Positions 575 through 63,914 of a stretch of DNA of 64,000 bases are shown in pieces. The translations under genes were made by a program, and so were the position numbers. The stretch is taken from positions 42,036,001 to 42,100,000 of the forward strand of contig OX597815.1 in NCBI GenBank assembly GCA_951406725.2. The letters run 5' to 3'. Every line of letters begins with the position of its first letter. Within the stretch, counting starts at the first letter, position 1. Below the pieces are notes generated by a model. That model saw only the letters and a program-made list of their open reading frames with translations, searched no databases and was not told the DNA's origin. Source of the DNA: Octopus vulgaris. Its lineage: Eukaryota.

Positions 575-17380
<16,806 letters not shown>

Positions 17381-37570: not shown

Positions 37571-37992
37571 CTGCCTCAATGTCAGATTATCACATGATAT
37601 GGTCAGCCTAGTGCACTTTTGATTGGGTGTCAGAAGACGTGGCACACTGAGTAGAAACCCTCATCATACCAAGTCCATTGTGCAGAATATTCCCAACTTT
37701 CATCAGATATGCTAATAGCATTGGCTATTTGATTTACATTCAGTCGCCTGTCATCCATCACCATGTGATGGACGCAATGTTTTCTTTGGTGATGGCAGTT
37801 GCAGAGTGTGTAGACTTTGGGTCATCTTAAAGACCCTCCTTTCTCCTAAATTCAGCTGCACGCTTTTGCACTTGATAAAGTTGGAGTATCATTCTCTAAT
37901 GTAGCAACTGTCAGCAAGAATGTCTTTGGGGACTAAACCCTTTTTCTGCAGTACTTGATAACATCACTATGCCATATTTTGTCCATTTTCAA

Positions 37993-40706: not shown

Positions 40707-41489
40707 CAAAGTTTTGTTAATCCTGTTCAGTTAATGAATTGTAATGTGTCTGTCTCTCTCCCTCCCTGTCTGCCTGTTTCTATATTTCTGCATGTGTGTG
40801 TTTGACTCTAGTACTAAAAAGTACTGTCACCAAAGCAGGTTCAGTGCTCGGTTATCTGTTCCAAATCACCAACGTCCAAGCAGCCGCACTAGAACGTCTC
40901 ATTCTGGACTTATGGCACAAACTTCTGGAGAGAGTCATTGATAACAACCTCCTCCAACACATTGAGTCTGAGGATAGTTATGATACTGTATTCTGTTGAT
41001 CAATCAGTCTTTATTTTGTGAATCAAAGGATGTTTTCGCTATTTCATCACTGTTTTTTGATGCGGTTACTTCACTCCAATTACTACCAATTTTTTCAGAG
41101 CTATCTGAAACTTTAATCGAAATTTATCCCCCCAAATTTTGTTTTATCCTATAGTCTTATAAATATGTCACCGTTATAAATCTATTGATTATGGTAGCGT
41201 TGAACATATAATAACAATTACCTAAATTTCCTTGAGCAGTCCTTTGAAGTCAAAAAGGAAGCATAGGAAATAACTTGTATATGATTGAAAGTTTTGGACA
41301 ATATAGCCTTTGCGAAGTGCAGTGGATCTGGTATTCAAAAACCAGCTGGTGAAAGCAAGGGTCTTGTTTAGCGAAGCGTATTCTATTTATCAAAACTAAG
41401 AGTTAGTAGCAGTTATTGGCTAACCCCAGCCTGCGAGACTTGCTGGGTGGCACCTCTAATGTGTTTCCTTCTAAGGAAAAATTACTTTT

Positions 41490-42354
41490 AATTTTCTAGT
41501 CATCGTTTGCCTTTTCTGCTATTTCTTTCTCCATTGTAAATTCATATAATGGGCATTCTGCCCTTATATGACCTCTTGCTCCACATAAGTAACAATTCGG
41601 CCTTCTTCCCTCTACAATTACTCCAATTGTTCTTCCATTTTCCACCTCTATATGAAAGGGAATTCGCTCGATATCTTCTATTGTGGCCATCAGCCACAAC
41701 TCGACACCGAATCCCTTCCAGTTCACGACATTGGTTTCTGTAATAGACCCCAGTTCTATTTCATCTTCAGTCGACCCTAGAATGGCTGTCACCAGCCATT
41801 CCATTTTTATCTCCGGCGGTACGTTTGGATCTTAACCCTTACGCCTCGTCTTCCTTTGTATGTAGGTAGCATTATAAAATTTTCCGCTCTAAGTACAGTG
41901 GAAGATAGCGAGGCCGCCTCTTCACTTGTGGCACACCTCACTTCTTCCCTCTGCATACATATGTCGCTTTGTCCATTATGTCACCAAGACACTTTTCTAT
42001 ATCTTCTATCGATATTTGCATTAGTTTCTTCGAGTTCCTATCCTGTGTCCTGTATATTATCGTTTTGTTGTTCCTGCTGGAGGGATCAGCTTGACGCTTT
42101 CACCCTCCCCTTTTACGTATTTCTCATATTCCTTTATTTCTTCCCTCTTAAACGTTACGTATCTTATCACAAGCGACGTGCCATTTTTCGTTGCGGTGAC
42201 CCTCGCATATGTCTCCATTACTGAGCGTCGACGTTCTATGAAAAGTAACGACAAGCAGCGGCAAGCGCCTCGCACGATTCGATCCTGTTTCGTCTCTCTC
42301 TACAATTTTTCACTCTTCTTCACACAAAAAATGTCTTAACACAGCATAACATGG
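41490..42354 (-). mobile_element. Tx1-like element A: decayed ORF1 and 5' end only
   Basis: ORFs 41496-41804 and 42057-42275 with VEGRRPNCYLCGARGHIRAEC zinc knuckle; no ORF2 or tail found. Confidence 0.8.
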
Positions 42355-42370
42355 TGTCAGTATGACTGCC

Positions 42371-45300
42371 TATTTCTTTATTACCCATTAACGGGCTACA
42401 CAGAACGTACAAAACAATCACGAATGATTAATACATGCTTCTGGGGTCTGTTTAAAAATTGAGTGATGAATAAAAGTTCGAATGATGAAACAATTACATA
42501 GACAAATTTACAAAATGTAGTGGGGTGGGTCTATGGACCCCACGCTCCCCGCCACGACACTTGACCTTGTGTTTTTTTCCGGCCTATCTCGCATTTGTGA
42601 GGGACCATTTATTCACCACATTTTTCCACCTTTCATTAAACACTTTCTTACTCAGACTCCTCCTCTCTAGTTTTATATGCCTTTTCAGGTGGAATTTAAA
42701 ATATTCCACCAGGCCAGAACCAGAGATGAAGTCGTCTGTTATCTTCCCTTTCATCCTTGTCTTCCATACTGCCTGTTTCGCAGTTGAAACCACAGAGAGA
42801 AAACAATTCTTACCTTCTTTCGTTAAGAAATCCGCTGGGCTGATTTTTACTATGGATTCGGCTGATAGCTGTACTCTTCCTTCACCTGACACCAGTTGTT
42901 TGGCAAAAACCCACATATCTGCCACCCCCGGACACTGCACGATCGCGTGCGAGACGGTTTCCCTGTCTCGCCCACATCTCGGACAGGTCGGGCTGACTTG
43001 GACACTGTGCCTTGCGAGTTTGTCCCGAACAGGTAAAGCTCCTCGGTAACACTGCCAAGCCAAAGACTTCTGAAAATTATCCAGGGTCTTCGGCCTGAAT
43101 GTACGTTGGAACAGACTGGCCAGCTGATTATCGTCGAAACCTAGGGTTTCCCCTAGCGTATCATCGTTACCGGCCTCTACGAACCCTCTATAAAACACTG
43201 CGGTAGAACCACTGCCGCAGGCATTGCTTGAGCGATGGAATAGTCGGAGTGCCATGCGACACTCCGTATACCACGAACCAAACTTCGATCTGCGATTATA
43301 CCAGTCTTCCCGTCCACCGAAACTGGTGAACCTGGGGAATATCTGTTTCGCCAGCGGAGACCACACCTGTTCACCATCTAGATGGAGCCATAGGTGCCTT
43401 AGCCTCAGCACATTTCTGCGCATCATTAGCCACAGCATCCCTAGTCCACCCTTTAACGGTTTTTGACAACAAATAGAGCATCTCACAAGTGGTTTCGAGC
43501 CCTTCCACAAGAAGTGAAAGAGCTGTCTCTCCAACTTGATCAACCACGAATCCGGGCAAGGCGGTAGGTGATCACCGATGCGATAAACACATTGGCTACC
43601 TCCGCCCTACCTTTCAAGGATAACCACTGCCAAGACCAAGTCTTGGCTACTGCAGCCACCTTGCTCGATACCTTGCTCTAGTTCTTCTCTATTTGGAGGT
43701 CTGGACCAAACCCAACCCTGAGCAACTTAATCGAGCCCTCCGTCCAACGTCCCACGACGCTGCCTGGAGGCATCGACTTGCCTCTCCAGGTGCTGAGTTG
43801 CAAGCCGACTGACTTTTCACGATTAACTTTTGCTCCTGTCACCGTCTCGTAAACCTCTATGGCCTTGCCTACTTTACGTAGGAGGTCCACTTCGGTCACG
43901 ATGATAGTGATGTCATCCGCGTACGCCGAAACCGACATTTCGTGTCCTGGTAGCCTCGGGATGCCGCTCAGTTTTCGCAGCAGCGGCTCAAGAGCCACTA
44001 CATACAAAAACAGGGAGAGCGGACATCCCTACCGAGTCGACGTTGTCGTACATTTCTATAATCCACCTGAGGAAGCCAAGACCCAGGCCGAACTGAGCCA
44101 GAACGGACACCAGGTAATGATGGTCGACCCTATCGAAAGCCTTTGACTGGTCTAAATGGACCACTGCCCCTCCCTTGCCGGGATCGTTATTCATTCCCTC
44201 TATCGTGTATCTAATAAGATGGAGATTATCCTGAATGGATCTGCCCGGTACGGCGCACGTTTGCGCCTTACCAATCAGTCCATTCGCGACACGCGCCAAT
44301 CTGTTCGATAACACTTTGGCCAAAATCTTCAGCTCTGCGTTAAGCAGAGTGATGGGCCTGAAATTATCAATGACATCCCCCTTGCTCCGGTCCTTCCTGG
44401 CTAGTGTCACCACTCCCAGGCGCACAGATCTGGGAATAAACCCATTCTGCTGCCAGTTTGCGTAGACGTTTGCCAGTTAGTCCCCAAACAAGTCCGGCAT
44501 ACTTTTATAAAGCTTGTAGGGCAGACCATCCAGTCCCGGCGCCTTACCCGCACCGCAGTCTGCCATGGCCTCTATTACCTCCTTAGGTGTGATTGGCTCC
44601 TCACTACACTTCGCGTCCTGCTCCGAGAGGCGCGGCAGCCCGTCGAGGAGGTCCTATCCCCCCCCCCAAAGAGCTGGGCGAAGTGCTCCTGAAAAGCTTG
44701 ACACATCTCCTCGGGCTCGTCTGTCAACTTACCCTGTTGGTTCGTCAGAGATCGAATTGTAGCATCGTTGCCACGTTGGGCTTCCACCACTCGGGCCCAT
44801 CCCGCGGCATTAATTCCTTCGCTCCCCATTGCATGTTGTCTAGCCCTGACAATGCAACCCATGTGTTTGGCTTCGAGGTGCTGGTTTAAAACCAGTCTCT
44901 TGGCCCTCACCTGAGCCACATTGCCAGTTCGCATTGCTTCCTCTAAGTCCTTAACTAGTGTACTTTCCTTCCTAGCCTCTCTAGCTACAAGATCTATACC
45001 TAATAGACTCATATTTTATGGCTCGCTTGAAGGCATACCACCATTTGTTGTCTGGATCATTAACCTAATCCTGTCACTGTACTCCTTAATTGCCAAAAGG
45101 GACGTATTAAGTTTCCAGTAACCAGGACCTCTATCTTATCTACGTCTAGCCTACAGGTGACCATCTTGTGGTCACTGTAGCTGACTATGTGGAGCTGTGG
45201 ACTCTAACTAGGTTTCTATCTACCTTCCTAATTAATATCCTGTCTATGTATGACCTTAATGATCCGTCGCTGCTTGACCATGTCCACAATGGAGCGTCCG

Positions 45301-47599
45301 GATGTTCCAGTCTATATGGATCTACCAGCTCAAAACGTCTTAGTAGATCCAGGAAGCAAGCATTTCCTTTCCTGTCTGTTCGCAATCCTTTACAGTCTAC
45401 CCGCACATCGCAGATTGTGTTGAAGTCTCCTAACATTACTAAAGGGTACGATGTACTCAGAAACTTCTCCAGATTCCGAAAATAATCACTTTCCCCTTAT
45501 TGCTGGGTGCGTAAACCGCAACCAGTCTGATTGTCTTAGGACTACTGAACGTCAAATCAACAACGACCAGCCTACCTTCTGGATCTGAAAAAATCAACTT
45601 TTTCCCAGAAACCCAGTTCTTTTTAACCAGGACCAACACCCCGCTTCCGCTGACCGCCGGGTTTGGAGAGATAATTCCCTCGTAGCCGCCGAACAACGGG
45701 AGCAGATCTCTTGGCCCCTTTAACCGGGTTTCTGTGGCAACAACATCTAGATCCCGTGACCTGATGTCATTTAGGAGGCGTCCTTGCTTCCAGCTCGACA
45801 TCAGGCCACACATTTATGCACCCTACACAAATACGAGACATTACTTACCTTTTCATTTTTTTTCTTCTCTGGTGGTCGTGGGAGGAAGTCCGCTTTAAAT
45901 AATGACTCGTGCAGGTCGAGTCGCGGACCATTAATGTCCCCCGGGTACCCCTCTCTTATTATATTAAAATTCATCATGTCAATATTGTAAACATCGACAT
46001 TTTTGGGGAGTACCCTATGTGTGTGGATTTTGTGTGCCGTTGGGATATTGTCTATTTGTTTTGTTAACCTGTCGTTTGCTTTGTTTATAGAAACGAATAC
46101 TGTCTCGTATTCTATTATTTTCTTTTTGGGGCTTTGTGGGGGTGATGGGGAGGAGAGGGAATTGCTCGGCACTGGGGAGTGGGGGTGGTTCGGGTTGGGC
46201 TGTGGGGGGGTCTTCTCTTTCTCTTTTTGTGGGGAACCATGGTTGGGTGGGGTAGATTTTTCCCCGTGTGTTTGATTTCTTTTTATATGTGCCTGGGTTG
46301 GGTGGGTTTGTGTCAACGTTTTTTCTCTTAGGAGTTTTCTTTTGCCTCACCGTTGTGTAGGCATTTTCGTCTTCCTTAGGTTTTTCTTCCTCCATCTCTT
46401 TACTCTTCTTCTCCACTTCTTCTGTCCTTTTTTCTTCCTCTTTCTTGCGGGTGGGGCATTCCATACGGATGTGTCCCTTTTCGCCACATTCGTAGCATCG
46501 AGGCGTTCACCCCTCCACCACCACCCGCAAGTTAATTTCCTCGCCGCATTGGATGCTCTCTGGGATCTCCTCCAGCGTTTCTGGGGCTGCCTGTATTATT
46601 ACATGTAGAGTCTGGCCTCTCCAATTTTCTTTTTTTATCTTTGTGATATTAACCACTCTTATTTTCCTCTCCAGCCCCATTAATAATGCTGGGAGCAGCC
46701 ACTTTACCTCAATTTCTGGTGGTATGTCCTCGATCCTTATTTTTGATGTTCTCCTCCCCAAATAAGAGGGTAGTAGAGTTATCTCGCTCGTTTTGATTGG
46801 GGTTAAGGAATGTTTTTTCGCCATTTCCTCGTCTCTAAAGTACACTTCTATAGTGGCGTACTTTTTCCCCCATGTCACATAATCTACGTCGTTCCATACC
46901 GGTTGAAGACACTTCTCCGCTTGTTCTTTTGACACCTTCTCGATCTTTTTTTCTTTTATGTAAGACTTATAAATTATAACTCTTTTGAGAGTTTCCTCTC
47001 TAATTACTTGTGGGAGGGTTGCTTTCACATTGTTCCCTTCCTTTGTGAACATTTTTTTATAATTCTCATAGTCTATTTCCTCCATCTTAATTTCTTCCAT
47101 TTTCTTTCTTGCAGCGGCTGCGAAATTGTATGTTGTGGTCTTATCATTTCCTTTGGAAGGCGAACCTTCAATCACTTCGGTTGCTTTCACAACTTCATCG
47201 GAAGGCGAACCTTCAGCAACTTTAGCTGTTTTTACAGCTTTTTCAGCAGGCGAACCTTCGACAATTTTCAATTTGGTTTCATCTATTTTTGCAATTTTTG
47301 ATGTAGGCGAACCTACTACATTTTCTTTTGAGGGTGAACCTCCGTCAGACATTTTTCCATCAGACATTTTTTCAGATGAAAAGATGTTTTTGTTCATTTT
47401 TTACAGAATTATGTTTTTTTTTTTTTTTGTGCTACAACGCACAGCACTTCCCTTCATTACGGAGGGGAATAAGTGTTTTCCTGGTTCAAAACCAGTTACA
47501 GTTCAAAGTAACACTTTTTTAACAAAACAATTTTTAACAAGACAATTTAAATACAATTTCAACAATATTTCACTCACATGTGTTCGAATAATAACGACT
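42371..47599 (-). mobile_element. Tx1-like element B, near full length, multiply frameshifted
   Basis: ORF1 47397 to ~45801 (CCHC knuckle across a frameshift); ORF2 from 45841 with APE endonuclease (GDFN), RT (SAYADD) and C-terminal CPRC..H...C; TSD tgtcagtatgactgcc at 42355-42370 and 47600-47615. Confidence 0.93.
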
Positions 47600-47615
47600 T
47601 GTCAGTATGACTGCC

Positions 47616-50600
47616 ACCAGGCCAGAGATCATGGTGTCTGTCATTACATTTTTCATTCTGGTCTTCCAAATAACCTCTTTAGCAACTGTTACTATCACGA
47701 CAAAGCAATGCTTACCTTCGTTTGTCAAGAAACCAGGCAAGTCAATTTTTAAAATTGACTCAGACGACAGCTGTGCTCATATTCCGTCTGACAACAGGTG
47801 TTCTGCATAGGCCCACACGTCCGAAATTTCCGGACACTGAACAATAGCGTGCAGGACTGTTTCCACATCCTGCTCGCATCTTGGACAGTTCGATGGTCCA
47901 CCGTGACCATGTCTTGTGAGCCTATCCCGAACGGGTAAGGCTCCTCTAACATTGCCAGGCCAAGGACTTCTGAAAGTTATTCAACGTCCTCGGTCCGAAT
48001 GTCCTTTGGGACAGGCTGTCTAACTGATTATTATCGGGACCCAAGGCCCTTCCCAGGGCATTGTCATTTCCGGCCTCTACCAACCTACTATAAAAAGCTG
48101 CGGTAATACCAAAGCCACCGGCATTGCCCGACTTGCGGAAGTAGAAGAGGGTTTTATGGCACTCTGAATACCACATACTCGACCTAAGTCTGCGACGATA
48201 CCAGGTTTCTCTACAATCAAAACTGGCAAAGCTGGGGAACATCTGCCTCGCGAGCGGGGACCACACCCGTTCACCATCCAGGTAGAGCCAAAGATGCCTC
48301 AACCTCAGCGCATGTTTGCGCATCAACAGCCAAGGCATCTCTAACCCACCCTTTAACGGCTTCTGACAGCAAATAGAACGTCTTACAAGAGGAGGGGAAC
48401 CCTTCCACAGAAAGCGAAAGATTTGCCTCTCCATCTTGCTCAACCACGAATCCGGACAAGGAACGACGGTTAGGCGGTAAGTGATGACCGATGCTATAAA
48501 CACATTGGCCACCTCCGCCCTCCCTTTCAAGGATAGCCACCGCCAAGACCAAGTCTCGACCGCGTAAGCCACCTTGCTCGCCACCTCAGACCAGTTCTTT
48601 TCTATCTGGAGATCTGGACCAAGCCAGATCCCTAGCAATTTAACCGGGCCCTCCGTCCAGCATCCCAATATGCTATTCGAAGGCATCGACTTGCCCCTCC
48701 AGGTGCCGAGTTGCAAGCCGACTGACTTTTCAACTCGTGCCCATCCGGCAGCCCTAATACCCTCGCTCCCCATTGCGCGGAGTCTAGCTCTGACGATACA
48801 ACCCATGTGTTTGGCTTCGAGGTGCTGGTTTAATTCCAGTCTCTTCAGCCTAACCTGGGCCCCATCGCCAGATCTCATGGCTTCCTCTAAGGCCTTAACT
48901 AGCCCCTTTTCTTCTCTACGCCCCCCACTAGCTACTAGTCCTATGCTATATGTAATGGACTCGTATTTAATGGCTCTCTTGAGGGCGTACCACCATTTTT
49001 TGTTAATAATGGAACCGGTTAACGCCCTCTGAATTAATAACTTAATCCAGCTTCTGAAATCCTTAATAGCCAAAAGGGACTTATTGAGTTTCCAGTAACC
49101 GAATCCCTTACTACATAACTTATCTAGGTGCAGTTTACCAGTGACCATCTTGTGATCACTGTAACTGACCGGGTGAAGCTGTGGACACTTAACTATGACT
49201 TTATCTATTTTTCTAATGAGAATCCTATCTATATAAGACTTGACAGACCCGTCGCTGTTTGACCACGTCCACTGTGGAGCGTTCGGGAATTCAAGTCTGT
49301 AGGGATCTACCAGCTGAAAGCGACTTAGTAGATCCCGGAAGCCACTGTTTGGTTTCCTATCGTTAGAGCCAACGCCATCGACATGCGCATTGACAATAGC
49401 GTTAAAGTCCCCTAGCATGTCTATGGATTTTGACGTGCCAAGAAACTTCTCTAGGTCTCGAAAATAATCAGTCTGATGTGAATTAGGTGCGTACACCGCC
49501 ACTAGCCTGATTTCCTTACCACAACTGAACTTCAGATCTAAGACGACCAGCCTACCTTCTGAGTCAGAAAGAATTAACTTTTTCTCTGAGACTCGATTTC
49601 TTTTGAGTAAGACCAATACCGCCGTCCAGGAGAAATAAATTTCTCGTAGCCATCCGGGAGCGGGAGTAGATCTCTTGGGCCTTCCACTCGAGTCTCAGTA
49701 GCAACAACAACATCTAAATCCTGCTACCTGGTATCATTTAAGAAACGCCCTTGTTTCCAGTTCGATATCAGGCCGCGCACATTTAAGCAACCTACATGAA
49801 CTACCATAATTCACCTACCTTGTTCATCTGGGTCCGGAGGACGTGGGGAACCCGCCTCTTCTACTTCTTGGGCCCGTGGAATCGGCAGGTTGGTGTTGTT
49901 ATTTTTTGCATCTCGCTTTGTGTCTTCTGCTCTCATTCTCGAGGGGCAGACATCTTTCCTGAAATCGTTTACTTATTGGTTGTACGTCTTCTGACCCATT
50001 TTGTAACTTCTCCATTCGCTTGCCGCTTCTTCTATCTCTATTTCTTCTATATGATGAGTTTCTATTCTCCTCATAATCTCTCTGTTAGATGACCTCATTG
50101 CTACGTACACTTGGTCGTCTGTAGCTTTCTCTGGCTTTTTCGCCTTTTTAATTTCTCTTGCTTTTTCACCTCTTATTTTCTCCAGGGAGGGGTTTTTATG
50201 CTTTCTTTTTTTGGTTTGAGTCCATCCCTCCCCTTCTTCTGGTATAGGTGTCGTTTCCAGTGGTACTTCAGGGTCAGTGTGTTCTTCAGTCCTTTTTTCT
50301 TCTTCTGCCGGCTTACAATTTTTCCTCAGGTGCCCCTTTTTTCCCCGCAAGCGAAGCACCTGGGCTGTCGGCCTTCAACCATAACTGGTAGACGGTTGTC
50401 ACCGATTTCGATAATCTCACTTATCTCTTCTAGCACGGCCGGTTCTTCTTGCAGAATTACTTTCACCTTTTGGTCGTGCCAGTATTTAGTCTCTTCCACC
50501 GTTGCATCTCTAATCTCTAGTCTCTCCTCTAGGCCCAAAGTAATTGCTGCGACTATCTGCTCCGGTTCGATTTTCCGGCGGATCATTCGCTATGGTTACT

Positions 50601-51471
50601 TTGGACATCCTTCTGCCCTTATAGATGGGCAGAAGCGTCACTATTTCCGTTTTCAGTGGGTTCATTGAGTGAAGCCTTGCTTCCTCCTCGTACTCGAACC
50701 ATACCTCTATTGTGCCGTACCTTTTCCCCCCTTGCAATGTATTTTACTTTGCTCCAAATAGGCTCGAGGCATGCCTCCACTTCTCTTTCTGCTGTAAATT
50801 CGATCTTCTTTTCTTTGCTTCTATATGTTTTATATATGATTGTTTTTCTTTCTACATTCTCTTTTACTTCTCTTGGTTGTACGATTTTTGTCTCGTATCC
50901 TTCTTTTTTCATATCCTTTTTGAGTTCCTCTAGGTTTGTGAGTTCGATTTTCTTTTCCTTGGTGCCTGCTGCTTCTGCGAAATTCAGCTGTTTTTTCGCT
51001 AGACTAGGCACATCTATGTTCTTTCGAACCTGCAGCCTTTTTTTCTCATTTTTGTTTTCGTTCTCCTCAGAGTCTGAAAGCAACTTCAATTCGCCGATTC
51101 TTTCCAACTCCTCTTCTGTTTTTTCTGGGCTAACCGCAGTTTGGCTAGCCGTTTTTCCTGGTCTCGCCATGATTTTGCTTGCCGTTTTTCCTGAGCTTTG
51201 GCTTGCTGTTTTCGCCATAATTTGGTTTGGCATTTTTCCTGGGCTTACCATAATTCAGCTTGCCGTTTTCTCTGGTCTCGCCGCAATTAGGTTTGCCGTC
51301 CTTCCCGGGCTGGCCATAATTTGGCCTACCCTCACAGGCAGTTCTTTCACAGAAATAACAAGAGTTTTTAACAATTTTTAACAATATCCCAAAATAAAGG
51401 TAATCCAACAAAGGTAATCCAATAATGGCACGGTAAACAATACAAATAATACTTCCAACTCGACAGTCACG
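47616..51471 (-). mobile_element. Tx1-like element C: RT domain deleted in frame, 3' end missing
   Basis: ORF 47946-49616 joins AAGWARVE directly to KSVGLQLGTW; frameshifted ORF1 ~51317-49800 with 10-aa repeats and zinc knuckle. Confidence 0.92.
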
Positions 51472-51762
51472 TTTAAGAAACACACTATTTCTTTATTACC
51501 CACAAAGGGCCAACGAAGAGGGGGACAACACATGATTTGGGGTCATGAAACAGATGAAATTTACATATAAATGAACTTTAAAATATTTTTACATGAAATA
51601 ACAAAAATCGAAGAAATCGAATGATACACAATTTCTTTTTTATTTTTTTATTTTTTTAAACAGCACGACATAAAAAGAACACATGAAGTGGGAACACCAG
51701 GATTGCCGACCCCACGAGCCCTGTTTTTCCCACCGAAACTCGGCAGCCAACTTACAGCGTGT

Positions 51763-54700
51763 TCACGTGGCCCCTTTCACTCGCAGCAATCGTGCCACAC
51801 GTTTCCATATTTTGTCAAACTCACACGCAGACAGACACCTTTTCTCTAACTCCACCTTTCTTTTTAGGTGGAACCCGAAAAAGATCACCAAGGCGGAGCC
51901 AGAGATCATGGTGCCTGTCTTTACCGCTTTCATTCTAGTCTTCCATATACACTCTTTCGCTACTGCTACTGTACTGAGAAAGCAATGCTTACCTTCACTT
52001 GTCAAAAAGCTAGGCGAGTCAATTTTTATAATTGTCTCAGCCGATAGCTGTACTCTTCTTCCGTCTGACAACAGGTGTTCCGCATATACCCACACATCCG
52101 AAACTTCCGGACACTGAACAATAGCGTGCGAGACTGTTTCCAGATCCCGCTCGCATCTTGGTCAGTTCAATGGTCCACTCCAACCATACTTTGTGAGTTT
52201 ATTCCGAACGGGTAAAGCTCCTCTGAAACATTGCCAGGTCAAAGACCTCTGGAAGTTATCCAATGTCTTCGGCCCGAACGTCCTTCGGAACAGGCTGTCT
52301 AACTGATTTCGATCGAGGCCCAAGGTCCTTCCTAAGGCATCGTCATTTCCGGCCTCTACCAACCTGCTATAGAAAGCTGCGGTGGTACCAAAGCCGCCGG
52401 CATTGCCCGACTTGCGGAAGTGGCAGAGTGCCTTATGGCACTCCGAATACCACATGCTCGATCTAAGTCTACGACGATACCAGGTTTCTCTGCCACCGAA
52501 ACTGACAAAGCTGGGGAACATCTGCCTCGCAAGCGGGGACCACACCCGTTCACCATCCAGGTAGAGCCAAAGATGCCTTAACCTCAGCGCATCTCTGCGC
52601 ATCATCAGCCAATGCATCCCTAAGCCACCCTTTAACGGTTTCTGACAGCAAATAGAACGTCTTACAAGAGGAGTGCTTCCCTTCCACAAAAAGTGGAAGA
52701 TCCGCCTCTCCAACTTGCTTAACCATGAATCCGGACAAGGGACGACGGTCAGGCGGTAGGTGATGACCGATGCTAAAAACACATTGGCCACCTCCGCCCT
52801 CCCTTTCAAGGATAGCCACCGTCCGGACCAAGTCCTGACTGCGTGAGCCACCTTGCCCGTCACCTCAGACCAGTTCTTTTCTATCTGGAGATCTGGACCA
52901 AACCAGATCCCTAGCAGCTTAACCGGGCCCTCCGTCCAGCATCCCACGATGCTATTCGAAGGCATCGACTTGCCCCTCCAGGTGCCGAGTTGCAAGCCGA
53001 CCGATTTTTCACGGTTAATCTTTGCTCCTGTCGCCGTCTTGTAAGCCTTGATGGCATCTCCCACATTACGTAGGAGTTCCACCTCGGTCTCGATGATGGT
53101 GATGTCGTCCGCATACGATGTTACAGATCCTCCACCTCCTGGATTCATCGGGATGGCGCTCAGCTTTCGCAGCAATGGCTCGAGAGCCATCACATACAAA
53201 ATCGAGGAGAGTGGACACCCTTGACGGACAGACTGTCTGATGCGGAACGGCTTCGAAAGGAAGCCATTCACCCGAACGATCGAGTCGATGTTATCGTACA
53301 ATTGTATGATCCACCTGAGGAAGCCAACACCCAGACCGAACTGCGCCAGCACGGACACCAGGTACCGATGGTTCACCCTATCAAACGCTTTACTCTGGTC
53401 TAAATGGACCAGTGCCCCACCTTTGCCAGAGTCATTCCCAAACCTCTCTATTGTGTAGCGTACTAGGTGAAGATTGTCCTGGTTGGTTCTTCCAGGGACC
53501 GCACAAGTTTGTGCCTCCCAGATCAGACCACCCGCGACACGCGTCAACCTTTTCGCTAGCACCTTGGCCAAAATCTTCATCTGTGTTTAGCAGAGTGATG
53601 GGCCGAAAGTTGTCTATGTTGTCCCCCTTGCTCTGGTCCTTTCTGATCAGCGTCACCACTCCCCGATGTACAGATCTGGGAATGAACCCATTCTGTCGCC
53701 AGTTCGCGAAGACGCCGGCCAGCACGTTCCCGAACAAGTCTGGCATTCTTTTATATAGCTCGTAAGGTAAACCATCAATCCCCGGCGCCTTACCTTCACC
53801 GCAGTCGACCAAGACCTCAGCTATCTCCTCAGGCTAGATCGACGCTTCACAGCTCTCCGCGTCTTGCCCCGAGAGGCGCGGCAACCCGGCGAGGATGTCC
53901 GTTAGGTCCACCCTCTCCTCCGGCCCGCCGTCGCCCCCAAAGAGCCGAGCGAAATGCTCCTGAAACGTCCGACACATCTCCTCTGGTTCGGTGATCACAT
54001 CGCCTTGCCCGCTCGTCACAGACTTAATTGTGGAATCGTTTCCACGTTGAGCCTCCACAACTCGTGCCCATCCGGCAGCCTTAATACCCTCGCACCCCAT
54101 TGCGCGAATTCTAGCTCTGACGATACAACCCATATGTTTGGCTTCGAGGTGCTGGTTCAACTCCAGTCTCTTCAGCCTAACCTGGGCTCCATCGCCAGCT
54201 CTCATGGCTTCCTCTAAGGCCTTAACTAGCCCCATCTCTTTCCTACGCCCACTAGTTGCCAGACCTATACTGTATCTAACGGACTCGTACTTGATGGCTC
54301 TTTTGAGGGCGTACCACCATTTGTTATTAATAATGAAACCGGTTAACGCCCTCTTCACTAATAACTCGATCCGGTTTCTGTACTCCTCAATAGCCAGAAG
54401 GGACTTATTGAGTTTCCAGTAGCCGAATCCCTTACTACCTAACTTATTTAGGTTCAGTTCACCAGTGACGATCTTGTGATCGCTGTAACTGACCATGTGA
54501 AACTGTGGACACTTAACTAATCCTTTATCTATTTTTCTAATAAAAATTCTGTCTATGTAGGACCTGACAGACCCGTCGCCACTTGACCACGTCCACTGTG
54601 GAGCGTTCGGGAATTCAAGTCTGTAGGGATCTACCAGCTGAAAGCGACTCAGTAGATCCCGGAAGCCAGGGTTTGGTTTTCTATCTTTTGAGCCAACGCC

Positions 54701-55147
54701 ATCGACGCGCGCATCGACTATGGCATTAAAGTCCCCTAGCATGACTATGGATTTTGACGTGCCAAGAAACTTCTCCAGGTCCCGATAAAAATCAGTCTGA
54801 CTCGAATTAGGTGCGTATACTGCTACCAGCCTGATTTCTTTACCACAACTGAACGTCAGATCTAAGACGACCAGCCTACCTTCTGAATCAGAAAAAATTA
54901 ACTTTTTCTCTGAGACACTATCTTTTTTATGCAGGACCAACACCCCACTCCCGCCCACATGCCGTCCAGGAGAAATAAATCTCTCGTAATCGTCCATGAG
55001 CGGGAGTAGATCTCTTGGCTCTTCGATTCGTGTCTCAGTAGCTACAATTACATTTAAATTCTGCGACCTGATATCGTTTAGTAAACGACCTTGTTTCCAG
55101 TTCGCTACCAGGCCGCGCACATTTATACAACCAACGTAAACAGCCAT
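51763..55147 (-). pseudogene. Element D ORF2 (APE endonuclease, RT, zf-RVT), frameshifted
   Basis: Segments 53834-55147 (INVRG, GDFN, YIDRI, SDH), 53432-53812 (KAPGIDG, FRPITLLN), 52162-53580 (LDQSKAFDRV, QGCPLS, SYADD) and 51763-52095; some frameshifts may be assembly errors. Confidence 0.9.
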
Positions 55148-56499
55148 AGTTTGCTTACCTTATTTCCTCTGGGTCCGGCCGACGGGGGGGAATCCGTCTC
55201 TTCTGCCTCCGGGGACCGTGGAATCGGCGAGTTGCTGTTCTTCTTTTCTACATCCTTCAGGGCATCCCCCTTGCTCATTCTGGATGGGCCTACATCTTTT
55301 CTGAAATCATTTGCTAACGTGTTGAACCCTCTCTGTCCCATCACGTAGCATCTCCAATCTCCACATCTCTCTTCCATCTCCACCTCCTCGATGTGTTGTG
55401 TCTCCACTCTACGCATCACTTCTCTGTTTGCGGTGTTCATCGCAACATATACCTTGTTTTCCTTCTCCGGCTTCTTCGCTTTCTTCACCTCTCTCTTCTC
55501 TTTGCTTATGGTTTTCTCCGGGGAGGGGTTATTGTGTTTTCGTTTTGTAGCAGCAACCTGTGACCACCCCTCCCCTACTTCTGTTGCAGGTGTTGTTTCT
55601 GTTGCCGCCACTTGAGAACTTGGCTTTGTGGGTTCGCCCTTCTCCTTCTCCGCCGGCTTGCAGTCTTTCTTGATGTGGCCCTTCTTGCCACAGGTGAAAC
55701 ACCTGGGCTTCCGGCCCTCCACCATTACTGCCATCCGGCTCTCCCCGATCTCGATAACCTCGCCTATCTCTTCCAAGACGTCCGGCTCGGCCTGTATAAT
55801 AATCCTTACCTTCTGTCCCTGCCACTTTTTGGCATCTTCCACAGTGGCATCGCGAATTTCTATTTTTTCCTCCAGCCCTGCAGTGACTCCAGCCACTATT
55901 AGTTCGGGCTCAACCTCTGGCGGTATGTTAGCAATTGTTATCCTCGAGATGCGCCTTCCTCTATAAATAGGGAGAAGGGTTATTGTCTCTGTTTTCAGGG
56001 GTTTCATGGACTGCTCCCTTGCTTCTTCCTCTGTTCTGAATCTGGTTTCCACCGTACCATATCTTTTACCCCTGGTTAAAAATATGATTTTTTCCCAGAT
56101 GGGTTGTATGCAAGCCTCCACTTCCTTTTCCGAAGAAAAGTCTATCTTCCTTTCCTTATTTCTGTATGTTTTGTACACTATCGTCTTTCTCTCTATCTCT
56201 TCGCGAGATTCTTGTGTCTGATGTAGTTTAATTTCATACCCGCTTCTGGATACTGTTTTTTTCGCTGCTTCTAGTTTGGTCAGATCTATTTTTCTTCCTT
56301 TTGGGCTAGCCGCTTCGGCGAAGTTTAACGTTTTCCTTGCCACGCTTGGCACATCTATATCCCTTTGTACCGCATTTCTGGTTCCCCTACTTTCCTCTTC
56401 GTCCGAGGAAAAGCCGGGTATAGCTGTTATTCTTTCTAGGCTGGACATCTCTGGACTCTGGGTTTGGTCCTCCGTTCTGTCCGCCTTCGGGCTGGCCAT
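55123..56499 (-). CDS. Element D ORF1 (gag-like nucleic-acid-binding protein, RRM-like region plus single CCHC knuckle)
   Basis: Uninterrupted ORF from MASPKA; CFTCGKKGHIKKDC; overlaps ORF2 start by 25 nt. Confidence 0.88.
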   Translation of the reverse strand: MASPKADRTEDQTQSPEMSSLERITAIPGFSSDEEESRGTRNAVQRDIDVPSVARKTLNFAEAASPKGRKIDLTKLEAAKKTVSRSGYEIKLHQTQESREEIERKTIVYKTYRNKERKIDFSSEKEVEACIQPIWEKIIFLTRGKRYGTVETRFRTEEEAREQSMKPLKTETITLLPIYRGRRISRITIANIPPEVEPELIVAGVTAGLEEKIEIRDATVEDAKKWQGQKVRIIIQAEPDVLEEIGEVIEIGESRMAVMVEGRKPRCFTCGKKGHIKKDCKPAEKEKGEPTKPSSQVAATETTPATEVGEGWSQVAATKRKHNNPSPEKTISKEKREVKKAKKPEKENKVYVAMNTANREVMRRVETQHIEEVEMEERCGDWRCYVMGQRGFNTLANDFRKDVGPSRMSKGDALKDVEKKNSNSPIPRSPEAEETDSPPSAGPRGNKVSKLWLFTLVV

Positions 56500-56699
56500 T
56501 ATTGGCCTACCCCTCGTCAGCGGCTTCACTAATATTAGTCAAATAAAATTCGACTAACAAATTCAAAAACAACTTACTTTTTCTTTTTGTTTTTTTTTTT
56601 CTTTTTTCACAATTAACAGCTGGTAATAGAACACACTGACAAAATTTTCACGAGCCGAAAAAAACACGACTGCGACAAGGAATCATTTGAGAAACACAC

Positions 56700-58347
56700 T
56701 ATTTCTTTATTACCCACCAGGGGCGACGAAGAGGGGACATAACAAAACATTGGGGACATAGAACAATATGATTAAAATTATGAGCAAATGAATTATAAAA
56801 TGAAAAAATGATAATATGAAAGCAATGCTAACGGCCCCATCCGCCAGCATCACTTACCTGTCCTTTATCACCCATTTCCCATTACAATTCCAAACTTTTT
56901 TATCACACTCTTCGTTTCTCTTTCATACCTCTCTATCATTTCATCCTTCATTGGCGCTGTCATCCATTTTATACGCACTTCGTTACACTTGTTCACCAAT
57001 GAGTCCATAAGTTCATCTTCAAACACCGCGTAACTACCGTCTTCATGCTCTTGCCATACGTCATTATGAAAAATCCTTTTTGAGTTCTCGGTGTCCCCCC
57101 TCCTCACAACACATAAAAAGTAGGTCTTGGGCCTTTGTTTGTTCTGTGTGTCTGTTTTTGTTTTTCTTGTAGGCGGGGAGCGGGTGGAATCGCTGTTTGC
57201 AGGGGAAGGATGGGACTCCAAGGGTGTGGGTGGTGTTGGGGTGGGTTGGGGCTTCGCACTGTTTTCTTTTTACCTTTTTCTCTTTTTCTCTTTTTTTTCC
57301 ACTCTTGCTGGATATTCTCCTCTTCAGTTGCTTCCCTTTCTGTTAGGTTCTCCTTTTCTTTGGTATCTTCCTTCATTTGGGGCTCCGTGACGACTTCCTT
57401 TTCCTTTGGTGGGGGAGGGCAGTAGGCTCTTATGTGACACCTCAGGCCACACTTATAGCACCTGGGCGCCCTACCCTCCACCCACACTCTCATAATAATG
57501 TTCCCAGTTCTTATAGTATCCGTCAGCCTTTCTATTATTTCCGCCTCCGTCTGTATGTTCATGTCTAATGTGGCACCTCTCACGCCTTCGTATTTCATAG
57601 TGGCGTGGAGGATGTCCACTTTATCTTCGTTTCCCTTGATCACCGCAGCCGTTATATATTCACCCTCTAGGTGTGGAGGTATTCCCTCCACCCTAATTCT
57701 TGTGGTCCTTCTATTTAAATACGAGGGTAGCAAGTATATTTTTTCCGTTCTCACCACCTTGGCTGCTATATTCCTGGCAACGTTCTCGCTTCTATATTGT
57801 ACTGTTACCGTTCCGTACTCCAATTCTCTTGTCAGGTAAACTATTTCCTCTCCAGTCTGTTTCAAAGCCTCTTCAATGGCTTCCATATTAATTATTTCCA
57901 TTTTTTTTCCTCCATTCATATATACTCTATATTTGATGGTTCTACGATTGAACCACTCGCCGCGCCCTGCTGGAGGCGACAGCTCGACCTCTCCGTTCTC
58001 CTCCTCCTTCATAAACTCCTGGAAGCCCGGCAACTTAGCCAGGTCCACCTCTTTTTCTATCGACTTCCTCGTTATTCCTGCGTAGGTACTTTCCATCTTT
58101 TCCACCGTTCTCTCCAACTCCTCCTCAGATGTCGATATTTCCGACGAACTTTCAGATAAATTCCTTCCGGCCATCTCATCCGTATGGGAGAGGCGGCTCA
58201 TAATCGCCTCAGACCGAAAAACGGCCGCCCGAACAGAAACAGTGCGACGCGCAGAACCAGCGCGACGCGAAACCGCACCAACCGAAGTTCAAAACTCCAC
58301 AACAACAACAATACTTTTTGTTCTTTTTTGCCGAATTCTACGAGCCG
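56700..58347 (-). mobile_element. Element E: ORF1-only non-autonomous Tx1-like element
   Basis: ORF 57104-58201 plus frameshifted C-terminus to 56868 with CYKCGLRCHIRAYC; ~170-nt 3' UTR ending in the shared tail; shared 5' motif acgagccgaaaaaacacgac; no ORF2 sequence. Confidence 0.9.
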
Positions 58348-58360
58348 AAAAAACACGACC

Positions 58361-61300
58361 TATTTCTTTATTACCCACTAGGGGCCACATAGATGGGACA
58401 ATACAATCTGATGATGGGGTCAGACACACGAATGGGTTTTACAAAAAAGCGAATTTTAAAAATTTACAGAAATTTACAAAAATAGCAAGAAATCGAATGT
58501 TGGAACAGACCGGAAGACATTACGGGTGGAGTGGGTGCGGGTTTAGCTCTGACCCCACGAGCCCCGCCTCCCCACTGATACTTTTGGTTTCGTTTGGTTT
58601 TACATTTATGTTGTATCATTCACTCGCAACTTTCGTGCTACATCTTTCCATCGTTCTTCATACACTCTCTTAGTCAGGCATATTCTCTCCAGCCCTATCT
58701 TCCTTTTCAGGTGAAAGATGAAATAATTCATCAAACCAGGGCCGGAGATGAACTTGCCTGACTGTAGACCTTTCATTCTCGTCTTCCATATCACCTCTTT
58801 CGCAATTGCTACTACAACGAGAAAACGAAACTTACCTTCATTCGCGAGGAAATCCGGTGGGTCAATTTTTGTAATCGACTCAGTCGACAGCTGTACTCTT
58901 CGTGTACTTGACAACAGCTGTTCGGCATAAACCCACACCTCAGACACGTCCGGACAATGAACAATAGCGTGCGGGACGGTTTCCCTATCCCGCCCGCATC
59001 TTGGACATATCGGACTGTCTCGGCCACCGTGCCTTGCGAGTTTATCCCGAACAGGTAGAGCTCCTCTGTAGCATTGCCATGCCAGAGACTTCTGGAAGTT
59101 GTCCAGTGTCTTCGGCTTGAACGTACGTCGGAACAGACTGGCCAGCTGATTATCGTCGAGACATAGGGTTTCCCCCAAGGTATCTTCACATTCCGCCTCT
59201 ACCAACCCTCTATAGAAGAATGTGGTGGAACCCCCACCGCAGGCGTTACCCGAGCGACGGAATAGCAGGAGAGCCTTGCGACACTCCGTGTACCAAGTAC
59301 CAAGTTTCGATCTACGATTCAGCCAGGTTTCCCATCCACCGAAACTAGTGAACTTGGGAAACATCAGTTTTGCTAGCGGAGACCACACCCGTTCACCATC
59401 CAGATAGAGCCACAGATGTCTTAACCTCAGCGCATGTCTGCGCATCATCAGCCAAGGCATCCCTAGCCCACCCTTTAACGGTTGTTGACAGCAAGTAGAG
59501 CGTTTCACAAGTGGTTTCCCGCCCTTCCACAAGAAGTAGAAGAGCTGTCTTTCCAACTTGATCAACCACGAATCAGGGCAAGGAACGACGGAAAGGCGGT
59601 AGGTGATAACCGATGCGATAAACACATTAGCCACCTCCGCCCTCCCTTTCAGGGATAGCCACCGCCAAGACCAGGTCTTGGCTATTGCAGCCACCTTGCT
59701 CGTTACCTCGCCCCAATTCTTCTCTATTTGGAGGTCTGGACCGAACTAGACCCCTAGCAATTTAATCGGACCCTCCGTCCAACGTCCCACGACGCTGTCA
59801 GGAGGCATCGACTTGCCTCTCCAGGTGCCGAGTTGCAAGCCGACTGACTTTTCGCGATTAACTTTTGCTCCTGTCACCGTCTCGTAAACCTCTATGGCCT
59901 TGCCTACTTTACATAGGTGGTCCATTTCGGTTACGATGATGGTGATGTCATCCGCGTACGCTGACACCGATTTTCCATTAACTGGCTGTCTCGGGATGCC
60001 GCTCAGTTTTCGCAGTAGTGGCTCAAGAGCCATCACGTACAAAAGCAGGGAGAGCGGACACCCTTGACGAACCGAGCGTTTGATTTTGAACGGCTTCGAC
60101 AAGAAGCCGTTCACCCGAACTACCGAGTCGATGTTATCATAAATTTGGATAATTCACCTGAGGAAGCCAAGGCTCAGCCCGAACTGTGCCAGAGCAGATA
60201 CCAGGTAACGATGGTCGACCCTATCAAATGCTTTAGATTGGTCTAAATGGACCAGAGCCCCACCCTTGCCAGAATCATTATTAAACCCCTCTATAGTGTA
60301 CTGCATTAGATGGAGATTATCCTGAATGGTTCTGCCCGGAACGGCACATGTCTGTGCCTCCCCGATCAGACCATCCGCGACACGCGCCAATCTTTTCGAT
60401 AACACTTTGGCCAAAATCTTCAACTCTGTGTTTAGCAGAGTGATGGGCCTGAAATTATCAATGCACTCCCCCTTGCTCGGGTCCTTTCTGACGAGTGTCA
60501 CTACTCCCCGGCGCACAGATCTGGGTATAAGCCCGTTCTGCCACCAGTTCGCATAGACCTCCGCCAGTAGGTGCCCGAACAAGTCTGGCATACTCTTATA
60601 TAACTCATAGGGTAGACCATTCAAACCCGGCGCCTTGCCCGCGCCGCAGTCCGCCATTGCCTCAACCACCTCCTCAGGCGTGATTGGCCCTTCACAGCCC
60701 TCCGCATCTCGCCCCGTTAAGCGCGGCAGCCCGTCGAGTAGGTCCGTATAGGCTCTCCTCCTATCCAGTCCGCCGCACTCACCGAAAAGCTGAGCGAAGT
60801 GCTCCTGAAAGGCCTCACACATCTCCTCGGGTTCGTTTATCAACTCACCTTGTTGGTTCGTCAAAGATCGAATCGTGGCATCGTTACCACGCTTGGCTTC
60901 CACCACTCGGGCCCATCTCACGGCGTTGATTCCTTCACATCCCATATGGCGGATCCTAGCCCTGACAATGCAGCCCATGTGTTTGGCCTCGAGGTGCTGG
61001 TTTAACACCAGTCTCTTGGACGCCACCTGAGCCGCAGAGCCAGTTTTCAAGGCTTCCTCTAATTCCTTAACTAGAGTAGTTTCCCTCCTAGCCTCTCTAG
61101 CCACTACTCCTATGCTATATCTAATTGACTCGAACTTGATGGCTCGTTTGAGGGCGTACCACCATTTGTTATTAATGATGGTACCAGATAGTGCCCTCTG
61201 AATTATATCCCTAATCCGGTCTTTGTACTCCTTAATCGCCAAAAGGGACGTATTAAGTTTCCAGTAACCGGATCCTCTATTTTTAACCTTATCTATGTCA

Positions 61301-63551
61301 AGCTTACAGGTGACCATTTTATGATCACTGTAGCTGATCGGGTAAAACTGTGGACACTTAGCTATTTTTCTGTCTACTTTTCTAATTAGTATTCTATCTA
61401 AATATGACCTGGAAGATCCGTCGCTGTTTGACCATGTCCACAATGGAGCGTTCGGAAATTCCAGCCTATAAGGATCTGCTAGCTCAAAGCGGCTTAGCAG
61501 TTCCATGAAGCCACTGTTACCTTTTCTATCTGAACGCGAGCCAACACAATCTACATCCGCTTTGCAAATTGTGTTAAAGTCTCCTAGCACAACTAATGAA
61601 TGCGAAGTACTAAGAAAGTTTTCTAGTTCACGAAAATAATCACTTTGCCCTGTATGGTTGGGTGCGTAAATTGCAACCAGTCTGATAACTTTACCGTTAC
61701 TGAACGTCAAATCCATGACGACCAGCCTACCTTTTGGATCTGCAAAAATTAACTTTTTCTCAGAAACCCGGTTTCTTTTTATTAGGACCAACACCCCACT
61801 TCCGCCAGTAGGACTGCCAGGAGAGAAAAAACTCTCGTAGCCGTCAAACAGCGGGAGTAGACCTCTTGGCCCCTCTAACCGGGTTTCTGTAGCAACAATA
61901 ACATCTAAATTACGCGACCTGATATCATGCAGGAAGCGACCTTGCTTCCAGCCTGCTCCCAGGCCGCGCACATTCAAACAAGCAACATAAATGTAATCCA
62001 TTACTTACCTTTATATCAGTGGTTCGGTTTTCTCTTTCTCTTCTTTGTTTAACTCTTTTTCAGGGCCTCGTGGGGGAGTCTGACGTAGGCCCTCGAATAT
62101 ATGTGGAGATGTCACATCCATTCTAAGTGGGCCTACGTCATGGAAGAATTCGGATTTTATCCGCCCGTAATCCTTCCGGCCTATTCTGTAAACTACATAG
62201 TCGTTCTTTTTCCCTATTCTCTCCACTTTGGCCATAGCTGCCAATACGTTCCCAAGTCTGTTATTTGATGCCTTAACGGCCATATACGAGTTCATCGACT
62301 CTCTTTTCTTTTTTAAGTTCACTCTGGGAGGGGTGGTTTCCGTTTTTCTTTTTTTTTTCTGGTGATTTTTGCCCACCCCTCCCCATTTTTCTTTTCCTCG
62401 CTCTTATTTTCCTCCGCCGCTAGTTCTGCTGCCTTTTTCACCTCCACACCTTCAGTCGTCCCTTCTGGGCCGCCCGGCGCTGCTTCTGGTGACACTTTAT
62501 CTTCTTTTTCACCTGGCTGAGGTGCTTCCTGCGGTTTGGGTTTGGGTTGGCATTCCGCCCTTACATGACCCTTCTTGCCGCAGCCGAAGCACCTCGGCTT
62601 TCTGCCCTCCACGAAAACTGTTATTCTCTCTTCCTCACTTATTTTTAAAGTTTCTGGAATTTCCTCCAGTGTTTGAACTTCCGCCTGAATGGCTATTACT
62701 ATTTTCTGTCCTTTCCAAAATTCCTCTTCCTCCACTGTGGCCTGGAGGATGTTTATTTTTTCCTCCAGGCCTACCATCACTGCTGCCACTAGACATTCGG
62801 CATCTGCCTCTGGGGGAATGTTGTTCATCGTAATTCTCGATGTTCTTTTCCCTCTATACAAGGGGAGGAGAACAATGTTCTCCGCTTTAATCGGCTCCAT
62901 AGATAGTTTTTTCGCTATCTCCTCTGTAGTGAAACGCACCTCCACTGTGCCGTATCTCTTTCCTCTGTTAATGTAAGTTATTTTGTCCATTAATGGTTTA
63001 AGACAGTTTTTTCTTCAATTTTTTGGATCATTTTTGTCGTCGTGTTGAATGTCTTATAAATTCTTTTTTTTTCTATTTCATCGTGTTTTTGGACGTTTGT
63101 GACCACTGTCACTTCCGTGCCCTCTTTTTTTACACAGTCCGCATATTTTTCCAAATCTTCTACATTTATTTTTTAAATCTTTTTACCGGTCACTTCAGAG
63201 AATTTTTTCGCTGGTGCTGGGTTTTCCTTTTTCTTTGGTGACGTCGCCTCTTTTTTCTTTGGCGACACCGCCTCTTTTTTCCTTGGCGACATCGCCGGAT
63301 ACTCCTCTTCACTCGTCACGGGAGAATCAGAGAAGGGGGACTCCATCTTGAACAGTTGGCTTCACAAGCCCTTGGTAACTTCAAGATAATTGATATTTTT
63401 CCCTCACGGAGGGGGGAACACCAACGCGAAGTCCTCGCGCGAAGGCTGACTTCGACTGTTAGACAGCAATATACAAAACAGGTAGACAAACAGTAGAGAA
63501 TAACAGATAATAATACGATAGCAAAAATATATCAACTTACAATAAACGCAA
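58361..63551 (-). mobile_element. Tx1-like element F, full length, frameshifted
   Basis: ORF1 from ATG at 63346 to ~62011 (CFGCGKKGHVRAEC); ORF2 62001-58606 in three segments with EN, RT (SAYADD) and CPRC knuckle; flanking repeat aaaaaacacgacc at 58348-58360 and 63552-63564. Confidence 0.95.
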
Positions 63552-63684
63552 AAAAAACACGACCGTTCGATTCACTTCAACATTTAAATTTAATTTGTCA
63601 AAATATTTTCGTCGCTTTGAGACCGCGACCTGTTCACTGACAAAACTTCGTGCTGCATGGTTAGATTATATGAAGTATTCTAAT

Positions 63685-63914
63685 GCGGCGAGCTGGCAGA
63701 AACGTTAACACGCTGGGCGAAATGCTTAGCGGTATTTCGTCTGCCGTTACGTTCTGGGTTCAAATTCCGCCAAGGTCGACTTTGTCTTTCATCCTTTCGG
63801 GGTCGATAAATTAAGTACCAGTTACGCACTGGGGTCGATGTTATCGACTTTATCCCTTTGTCTGTCCTTGTTTGTCCCCTCTATGTTCAGCCCCTTGTGG
63901 GTAGTAAAGAAATA
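63685..63914 (+). mobile_element. Full-length Nin-type SINE with 16-bp TSD
   Basis: TSD tatatgaagtat(t/c)cta at 63667-63682 and 63915-63930; tail gccccttgtgggtagtaaagaaata. Confidence 0.9.

Follow-up and report, generated by a model that had tools for sequence, protein, structure and literature searches.

The Arabidopsis Ty1/copia retrotransposon EVD carries a conserved U1-type splice donor at the end of its structural gene; its spliced shGAG RNA serves for the structural protein alone, the unspliced RNA dominates, and U1 also blocks premature termination (PMC5580714). A conserved donor in the corresponding place was found at the boundary between ORF1 and ORF2, the two open reading frames (ORFs) of L1/Tx1-type long interspersed nuclear elements (LINEs) of Octopus vulgaris, in a stretch of 64,000 nt (OX597815.1:42,036,001-42,100,000; labelled G000:C2:42036001-42100000, from a 2.8-Gb genome), referred to below as the window. 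EVD differs in being a long terminal repeat (LTR) element: its single ORF encodes a polyprotein, an internal acceptor lies close by and polyadenylation can occur at a premature site (PMC5580714), whereas the octopus LINEs have two ORFs, no conserved internal acceptor, few AATAAA signals in ORF2 and a predicted long-range stem that encloses ORF2. By analogy, the octopus arrangement would work most like EVD shGAG, minus the internal acceptor.

Functional splice donors are also known from an L1-type LINE, human L1, where the events lie within the 5′ untranslated region (UTR) or join the 5′ UTR to ORF1, damage the element and leave spliced retrocopies (SpIREs; PMC5860796). In the octopus LINEs, by contrast, the donor stands at the ORF1 stop across the whole radiation, and no spliced retrocopy was met among the matches read (1 F-type and 74 distant-clade matches lay outside that set). 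SART1 resembles them in having RNA structure 3′ of the ORF2 start and differs in needing an overlapping stop and start (PMC5972666); the octopus elements have no such overlap in the ORF1 frame, and their predicted structure is long-range, reaching the ORF2 stop. The structure-bridged, U2AF2-independent introns of zebrafish have complementary arms just inside both intron ends (PMC4691745), as the putative ORF2 intron has by prediction; here, however, the arms are coding sequence rather than repeats, and splicing to an adjacent AG is hypothetical. The splicing described for TART is antisense (PMC1636488). Target-specific LINEs of the Tx1 clade (PMC4494074) and octopus L1-Tx1 elements (PMC13282606) have in common with the present ones an ORF2 with APE, RT and zinc-binding domains, a CCHC ORF1, target-site duplications, insertion into repeats and partners among the short interspersed nuclear elements (SINEs). 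The former work covers Tx1 targets and the latter octopus L1-Tx1 counts, and the accessible text of neither mentions a junction donor or a stem around ORF2 ("splic" had 0 matches in PMC13282606). No report of a LINE junction donor combined with an ORF2 stem was found in a literature search that left subscription journals, Repbase and supplements outside; the repeat library of PMC13282606 may bear on this point.

The LINE array occupies ~36.6-63.6 kb of the window on the minus strand, with its elements head to tail. ORF2 matched PF03372, PF00078 and PF13966, that is, the APE, RT and C-terminal zinc-binding (zf-RVT) domains together that mark L1/Tx1 non-LTR elements, and the separate ORF1 carries a CCHC knuckle (PF00098; 12 ORF1s aligned). 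Human L1 ORF2p was the best solved-protein relative of the array ORF2 (E 7e-65), and the closest named ORF1 proteins came from Octopus. Relatives were gathered with two ORF2 queries and the zf-RVT family, 150 candidates being scored for each, and arrays and whole copies were fetched. The tree drawn from them spans 11 lineages of these elements alone. Target-site duplications of ~17-19 nt surround the L087 and L088 copies. As uncounted observations on flanks, several F copies share one flank, L085-type copies lie within a SINE and L112 abuts (ATT)n. In family F many copies have an intact 1132-aa ORF2, although the copy in the window has stops in it.

The first-pass annotation had placed a donor at the ORF1/ORF2 boundary of five elements of the window, and all five GT dinucleotides were found at their positions on the minus strand (Table 1), with the ORF2 ATG inside the putative intron by 7 nt (B and F; ATG at +8) or 11 nt (C and D; +12). 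It had also proposed conservation across families as a check. GTAAG, GTGAG or GTAGG stood at most 62 nt 5′ of the ORF2 start in 93 of 96 distinct junction contexts from 16 lineages, despite variable synonymous sites, and the three misses were single copies. Clustering of the contexts at 88% nucleotide identity gave 16 clusters, 15 of them with the motif; the sixteenth is one mutated copy, whose family has the motif in 11 of 12 loci. The background was 14 occurrences in 6930 nt, or ~3% per 14-nt window. ORF2 identity was 55-93% among 10 lineage representatives, and only 21 of 147 fourfold-degenerate ORF2 sites were invariant across 11 lineages, against fixed G+1, T+2 and G+5 in the donor. The ORF1 stop lies upstream of the donor in some lineages (-7 in the L085 type, -5 in F, -4 in B), at +2 in others (D, L087, L103, L105, L113) and at +6 in L112 and most ORF1-only copies, and the ORF2 ATG ranges from +7 to +49. 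Since these registers vary while G+1, T+2 and G+5 are fixed, the donor is kept at the nucleotide level; in F, with its stop at -5, it is wholly non-coding. Judged from these alignments, the junction site is with high confidence a selected U1-type signal.

Several details of the earlier description were modified. The AG/GT consensus holds for the window elements and not universally, as distant lineages read CC/GT or CA/GT, and the donor of E does follow its stop, at a distance of 13 nt. A K-V-S peptide at the ORF1 end had been offered as a competing explanation; the read-through in D on which it leaned is a frameshift of the window copy, and the intact relatives of D stop at +2. A conserved peptide is also at odds with the shifting register of the ORF1 stop between lineages. 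AGGTRAG occurs 19 times inside ORF2 against 5.9 expected, an excess due to about three inherited sites that are not independent. A second donor-like site, before the ORF2 stop (Table 1), recurs with its GT at 51992 in D, 47715 in C and 42813 in B; 8 of 10 lineages retain it, even through a change from K to E. Donor-like GTRAG was also seen near the element 5′ end (GT at 63540, 56577, 47577 and 37507, minus strand; lacking in L113 and L120), often followed by 45-95 T-rich bases and an AG; it might represent a small intron of the 5′ UTR or a U1 site close to the promoter.

A feature that the first-pass annotation overlooked is a predicted long-range stem around ORF2. Its inner helix was tested between the ORF2 start (-3 to +27) and the ORF2 stop (-22 to +13); these windows were fixed after the helix had been spotted by eye in F and several lineages, so the test was not fully blind. 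In the predictions for 11 lineages, the own partner outscored every one of ~700 windows in 6, and in 10 at most 6 windows did as well or better; the own lineage was the best partner in 9 of 11, and none of 20000 permutations reached the score. The pair types vary by lineage, most columns showing three or four. The start codon region of ORF2 is thus predicted to pair with the region of its stop codon in 10 of the 11 lineages that have lineage-matched sequence, so that ORF2 would lie closed in a loop of 3.4 kb; this stem is very likely real. An outer helix between the ORF1 end and the 3′ UTR, scored ungapped, was the best of 82 windows in 5 of 11 lineages, with 0 of 20000 permutations. The junction flanks had been called unalignable; they are indeed lineage-specific but not free, being predicted to pair with the ORF2 end and the 3′ UTR. 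Masking of the donor by the 3′ UTR was rejected as a general rule, because pairing of the donor/spacer stood out from nearly every control in just 4 of the 11 lineages.

Element E belongs to the ORF1-only families; solo ORF1 elements exist elsewhere too (PMC5405496). A 15-bp hairpin starting at donor +3 was predicted in these copies, 99% paired across 14 of them, and it looks like the ORF2 stem with its loop deleted. These families likely arose by such a loop deletion, and the leftover stem would now mask the donor. An origin as spliced retrocopies was rejected, as 13 of 14 keep the GT.

Indirect evidence that the donor is used came from two RefSeq protein models of Octopus sinensis, XP_029641624.1 (P0001) and XP_036364761.1 (P0008), which leave ORF1 exactly at the donor. 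P0001 tracks ORF1 to SLSQP and then continues with 25 foreign residues, where genomic copies read CC/GTGAGT with a stop at +2. The last 21 residues of this extension matched G000:C9:56534334-56534396 with 100% identity, and its codons H-Y-T start one base after a long pyrimidine tract ending in TTTCAG, which is the phase that the donor needs. The added exon is, on this sequence evidence, host DNA outside any element, behind a textbook acceptor; in length the locus differs by 7 nt between the genomes, and ~70 kb upstream of the host exon in G000 contain no ORF1 belonging to the family. A screen of the C-termini of retrieved proteins of at least 100 aa (153 retrieved) yielded P0008 as a second case. 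This model agrees with another lineage as far as TPTTNN, leaves it at the codon split by CA/GTAAGT and adds 22 residues that are absent from all frames of that lineage's element. A gene predictor could have used a stop that lies no more than six bases from the donor, so a spliced model suggests that alignment evidence lay behind it. P0002 is a truncated model, a protein search with the ORF1 C-terminal region gave no match, and a metagenome scan for relatives matched only one unrelated endonuclease. We consider some splicing at the donor in vivo probable.

The acceptor appears to lie outside the element. No strong conserved acceptor was found in ORF2, near the ORF2 start or in the 3′ UTR across lineages. 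Of the 3′ UTR candidates nominated earlier, the one in B (tttttaaacag, ~42448) has an AG that is absent from B's intact relatives L107 and L109, and the one in F (~58408), whose letters are corrected here to ctgaccccatcatcag, is absent in D, L087, L107 and L113. Nor was a spliced retrocopy, with ORF1 joined to the 3′ UTR, present among ~250 genomic junctions read. Of 151 exon-side matches of the F type, 145 run on into the donor and 4 more are variants that keep the GT; of the last two, one is not an element and the other was not seen. In the distant clade, GTRAG was present in 98 of the 100 listed among 174 matches, and the 7 non-G matches comprised 5 point mutants and 2 non-elements. Had a spliced RNA retained the 3′ tail, some copies would be expected, because a SINE and the ORF1-only families share that tail. 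We take the absence as moderate evidence against tail-keeping splicing, though trans-mobilisation may be inefficient. The SINE in question, which is abundant, lies at 63685-63914 (plus strand) of the window, and over its final ~45-60 nt it can be aligned with the 3′ tails of elements F, E, D and B, which makes its mobilisation by these LINEs likely. The proposal that ORF2 sits in an intron can thus be kept only in the sense that ORF2 would be skipped when the donor meets a downstream outside acceptor, and not for internal 3′ UTR acceptors; the two models that splice at the donor support its use.

The explanation we favour, still tentatively, is that a working donor, which joins the ORF1 exon to outside acceptors, and the ORF2 loop together set the ratio of ORF1p to ORF2p. 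U1 would bind the donor at the ORF1 stop, and on the nascent RNA it might carry the polymerase beyond polyadenylation signals. Part of the RNA would then read past the element end and splice ORF1 to the next outside acceptor, giving an ORF1-only message that lacks the 3′ tail and is presumably not retrotransposed. In F, B and L085, where the stop lies just 5′ of the donor, the spliced RNA would therefore keep ORF1 whole. On unspliced RNA, the predicted stem would close the ORF2 loop and hide the ORF2 AUG, so that ORF2 would rarely be translated; a ribosome ending ORF1 might open the stem and allow occasional ORF2 translation. The net effect would be a high ORF1p:ORF2p ratio.

A number of observations weigh against this explanation. 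Reliance on a chance host acceptor is unreliable, for which reason splicing may be a by-product of U1 binding, and where the ORF1 stop lies at +2 or +6, a spliced RNA loses it and acquires a chance tail. P0001 and P0008 are automatic gene models from a relative species, with transcript support not visible, and the exon of P0008 was not located in the genome among the 150 of 207 candidates scored. Contigs crossed the F donor unspliced in 4 of 4 runs, which were guessed to be RNA and may be DNA. Split reads were not seen: none of the 15 of 67 joints and 24 of 902 loose ends listed fell at 62008, 56857 or 55158, many of those listed falling in the SINE at 63685-63914, and the listing is uninformative on rare junctions. 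On the structural side, the inner stem is weak in L112 (58 of 704 windows equally good), the outer arms are weak in L085, L087 and L088, and when the ORF1 end and the 3′ UTR were paired as a duplex without constraints, the own pair was best in only 3 of 11 lineages. Covariation in the ORF1-only hairpin did not exceed that of shuffles (54 of 500), a single pair having changed on both sides.

Two joints in the contigs are recorded here as separate observations. In run X6 a contig skips 611 nt of ORF2 (61143-61753, minus strand) with GT..AG ends, weak sites and two extra letters, which may be a genomic deletion. Runs X5 and X6 share an ORF1-to-3′ UTR joint (58484/62344) with unknown letters between and non-splice ends.

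A co-transcriptional switch is possible, if doubtful. The donor would be open to U1 during transcription of ORF2, and the stop region would then fold back and hide the AUG and, in some lineages, the donor; this would decide between trapping of the ORF1 exon onto host genes and a full-length, gated RNA, with the ORF1-only families as loop-out products.

The main rival, which we also rate as no better than possible, is that U1 docks at the site without splicing, either shielding the 3.4-kb ORF2 RNA from premature cleavage or suppressing the terminal AATAAA for read-through, with splicing as a side effect. U1 has a second role of this sort in EVD (PMC5580714). The lack of a conserved acceptor fits this reading, as do the extra donor-like sites that recur close to the 5′ end and again ~430-490 nt ahead of the terminal AATAAA, the genomic copies in head-to-tail arrays without a poly(A) tail, and the loop, which would place the donor ~200-250 nt from AATAAA. 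However, the ORF2s of the 11 lineages hold only 7 AATAAA and 6 ATTAAA, below shuffles, and because these are scarce there is little in ORF2 that needs protecting. Moreover, synonymous changes have destroyed the internal donor-like sites in 2-3 of 10 lineages, and in the ORF1-only families the donor is buried in the stem.

The rival closest to the original idea of an ORF2 intron is that the stem holds the donor beside an AG ~25 nt after the ORF2 stop and replaces the pyrimidine tract, so that the ORF1 mRNA keeps its 3′ UTR. At +22 to +28 after the stop, where the outer helix has its inner edge, such an AG was found in every one of the 11 lineages (noticed post hoc), in a geometry like that of the bridged zebrafish introns (PMC4691745). 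It lies, however, in purine-rich sequence among many other AGs and lacks a pyrimidine tract; the two gene models skip it, and the RNA would keep the tail that is apparently common to SINEs and ORF1-only families, yet no such retrocopy was seen. We regard splicing of this kind as unlikely.

A still less probable view is that the site is a translation signal only, of the SART1 termination-reinitiation type, or an inherited stop-codon context, with an incidental likeness to a donor. TAA, TGA or TAG at +2 is the ORF1 stop in several lineages; SART1 needs structure 3′ of its restart site (PMC5972666), and the stem may well act in translation. Nevertheless, G+1, T+2 and G+5 are fixed even where the stop is elsewhere, neither F nor B has the TAATG in the ORF1 frame, the distance from stop to ATG runs from ~10 to ~45 nt, and two models splice at the site. 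The TAATG or TGATG coupling suggested earlier is not compatible with ORF1 stops at -7, -5, -4, +2 or +6 and ATGs at +7 to +49, depending on the lineage; TGATG is in frame only in ORF1-only families, which lack ORF2, and the UAAUG stop-start overlap of the coupling type is missing. Finally, in-frame fusion of ORF1 to part of ORF2 by splicing is most improbable: all 11 lineages share an unchanged TATAG ~2820 nt into ORF2, in a phase that fits the +2-stop donors, but it was picked post hoc, and 12 of the 58 Arg columns show AG throughout in any case; in F, B and L085 the ORF1 stop precedes the donor, and neither gene model joins ORF2.

Table 1. Elements of the array, junction donors and predicted helix arms (window positions; +/- numbers relative to the donor)
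Feature	Position	Strand	Remarks
F donor, AAG/GTAAGT	62003-62011	-	GT 62008; ORF1 stop TAA at -5; ORF2 ATG 62001
E donor, CAG/GTAAGT	56820-56860	-	GT 56857; +3 onward within predicted 15-bp hairpin
D donor, AAG/GTAAGC, and inner-helix 5′ arm	55126-55161	-	GT 55158; ORF2 ATG 55147
C donor, AAG/GTAGGT	49807-49821	-	GT 49818; ORF2 ATG 49807
B donor, AAG/GTAAGT, and inner-helix 5′ arm	45817-45851	-	GT 45848; ORF2 ATG 45841
Second donor-like site, AAG/GTAAG	58830-58838 (F)	-	~230 nt before ORF2 stop
F inner helix, 5′ arm	61977-62001	-	ORF2 start and first codons; predicted, beats 694/694 control windows
F inner helix, 3′ arm	58594-58627	-	ORF2 stop region (stop ends 58606); predicted
F outer helix, 5′ arm	62013-62022	-	ORF1 end; partner 58572-58581; predicted
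F outer helix, 3′ arm	58572-58581	-	In 3′ UTR; AG without pyrimidine tract at inner edge; predicted
D inner helix, 3′ arm	51752-51775	-	Around ORF2 stop (51763); predicted, beats 691/691 control windows
B inner helix, 3′ arm	42581-42605	-	Around ORF2 stop (42584); predicted, beats 666/666 control windows
Element F, L1/Tx1-type LINE	58362-63560	-	Young family, ~150 copies; 5′ end approximate
Element E, ORF1-only family member	56701-58361	-	Donor ~140 nt before terminal AATAAA
Element D, full length	51487-56700	-	ORF2 broken
Element C	~47615-51486	-	Internal deletion; 3′ end cut
Element B, full length, broken	42372-47615	-	5′ end approximate
Common 3′ end with AATAAA	58362-58376; likewise 56701, 51487, 42372	-	No poly(A) tail; abuts next element

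The elements terminate in AATAAA and a few bases without poly(A). ORF1 fragments A (41450-42371) and G (36560-37580), both on the minus strand, lengthen the array, and arrays on C10 and C15 have a similar element order. A C-run/G-run hairpin lies just 5′ of ORF1 (63399-63418, 47448-47469 and 37385-37406, minus strand) and is present in 6 of 11 lineages, with stems that differ in sequence, and in weak form in a seventh. The L087 copy (L087:1880-1990) sits just behind CCAAT and TATA-like motifs, and its target may be a promoter. On the C22 stretch L043 (~14199000-14201400), a long simple tandem repeat with open frames on both strands interrupts the array region. Elsewhere in the window, an ORF of 263 aa without a Pfam match lies at 32686-33477 (plus strand), and 9291-9626 (plus strand) is what we take to be a host exon resembling the SUMO E2 enzyme UBC9.

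It is still poorly understood how bicistronic LINEs come to produce plenty of ORF1p but only a little ORF2p, and the accessible part of a review lists only SART1 coupling and unconventional L1 reinitiation (PMC5972666). If the mechanism favoured here is true, a donor combined with a start-to-stop RNA loop would be a third, unreported LINE solution, parallel to the spliced gag RNA of copia elements, and would offer a route for the origin of ORF1-only families. Element-to-host chimeric transcripts would arise wherever a young copy lies 5′ of an acceptor, and on the more doubtful reading of a co-transcriptional switch hundreds of young copies would act as portable splice donors feeding host exons.

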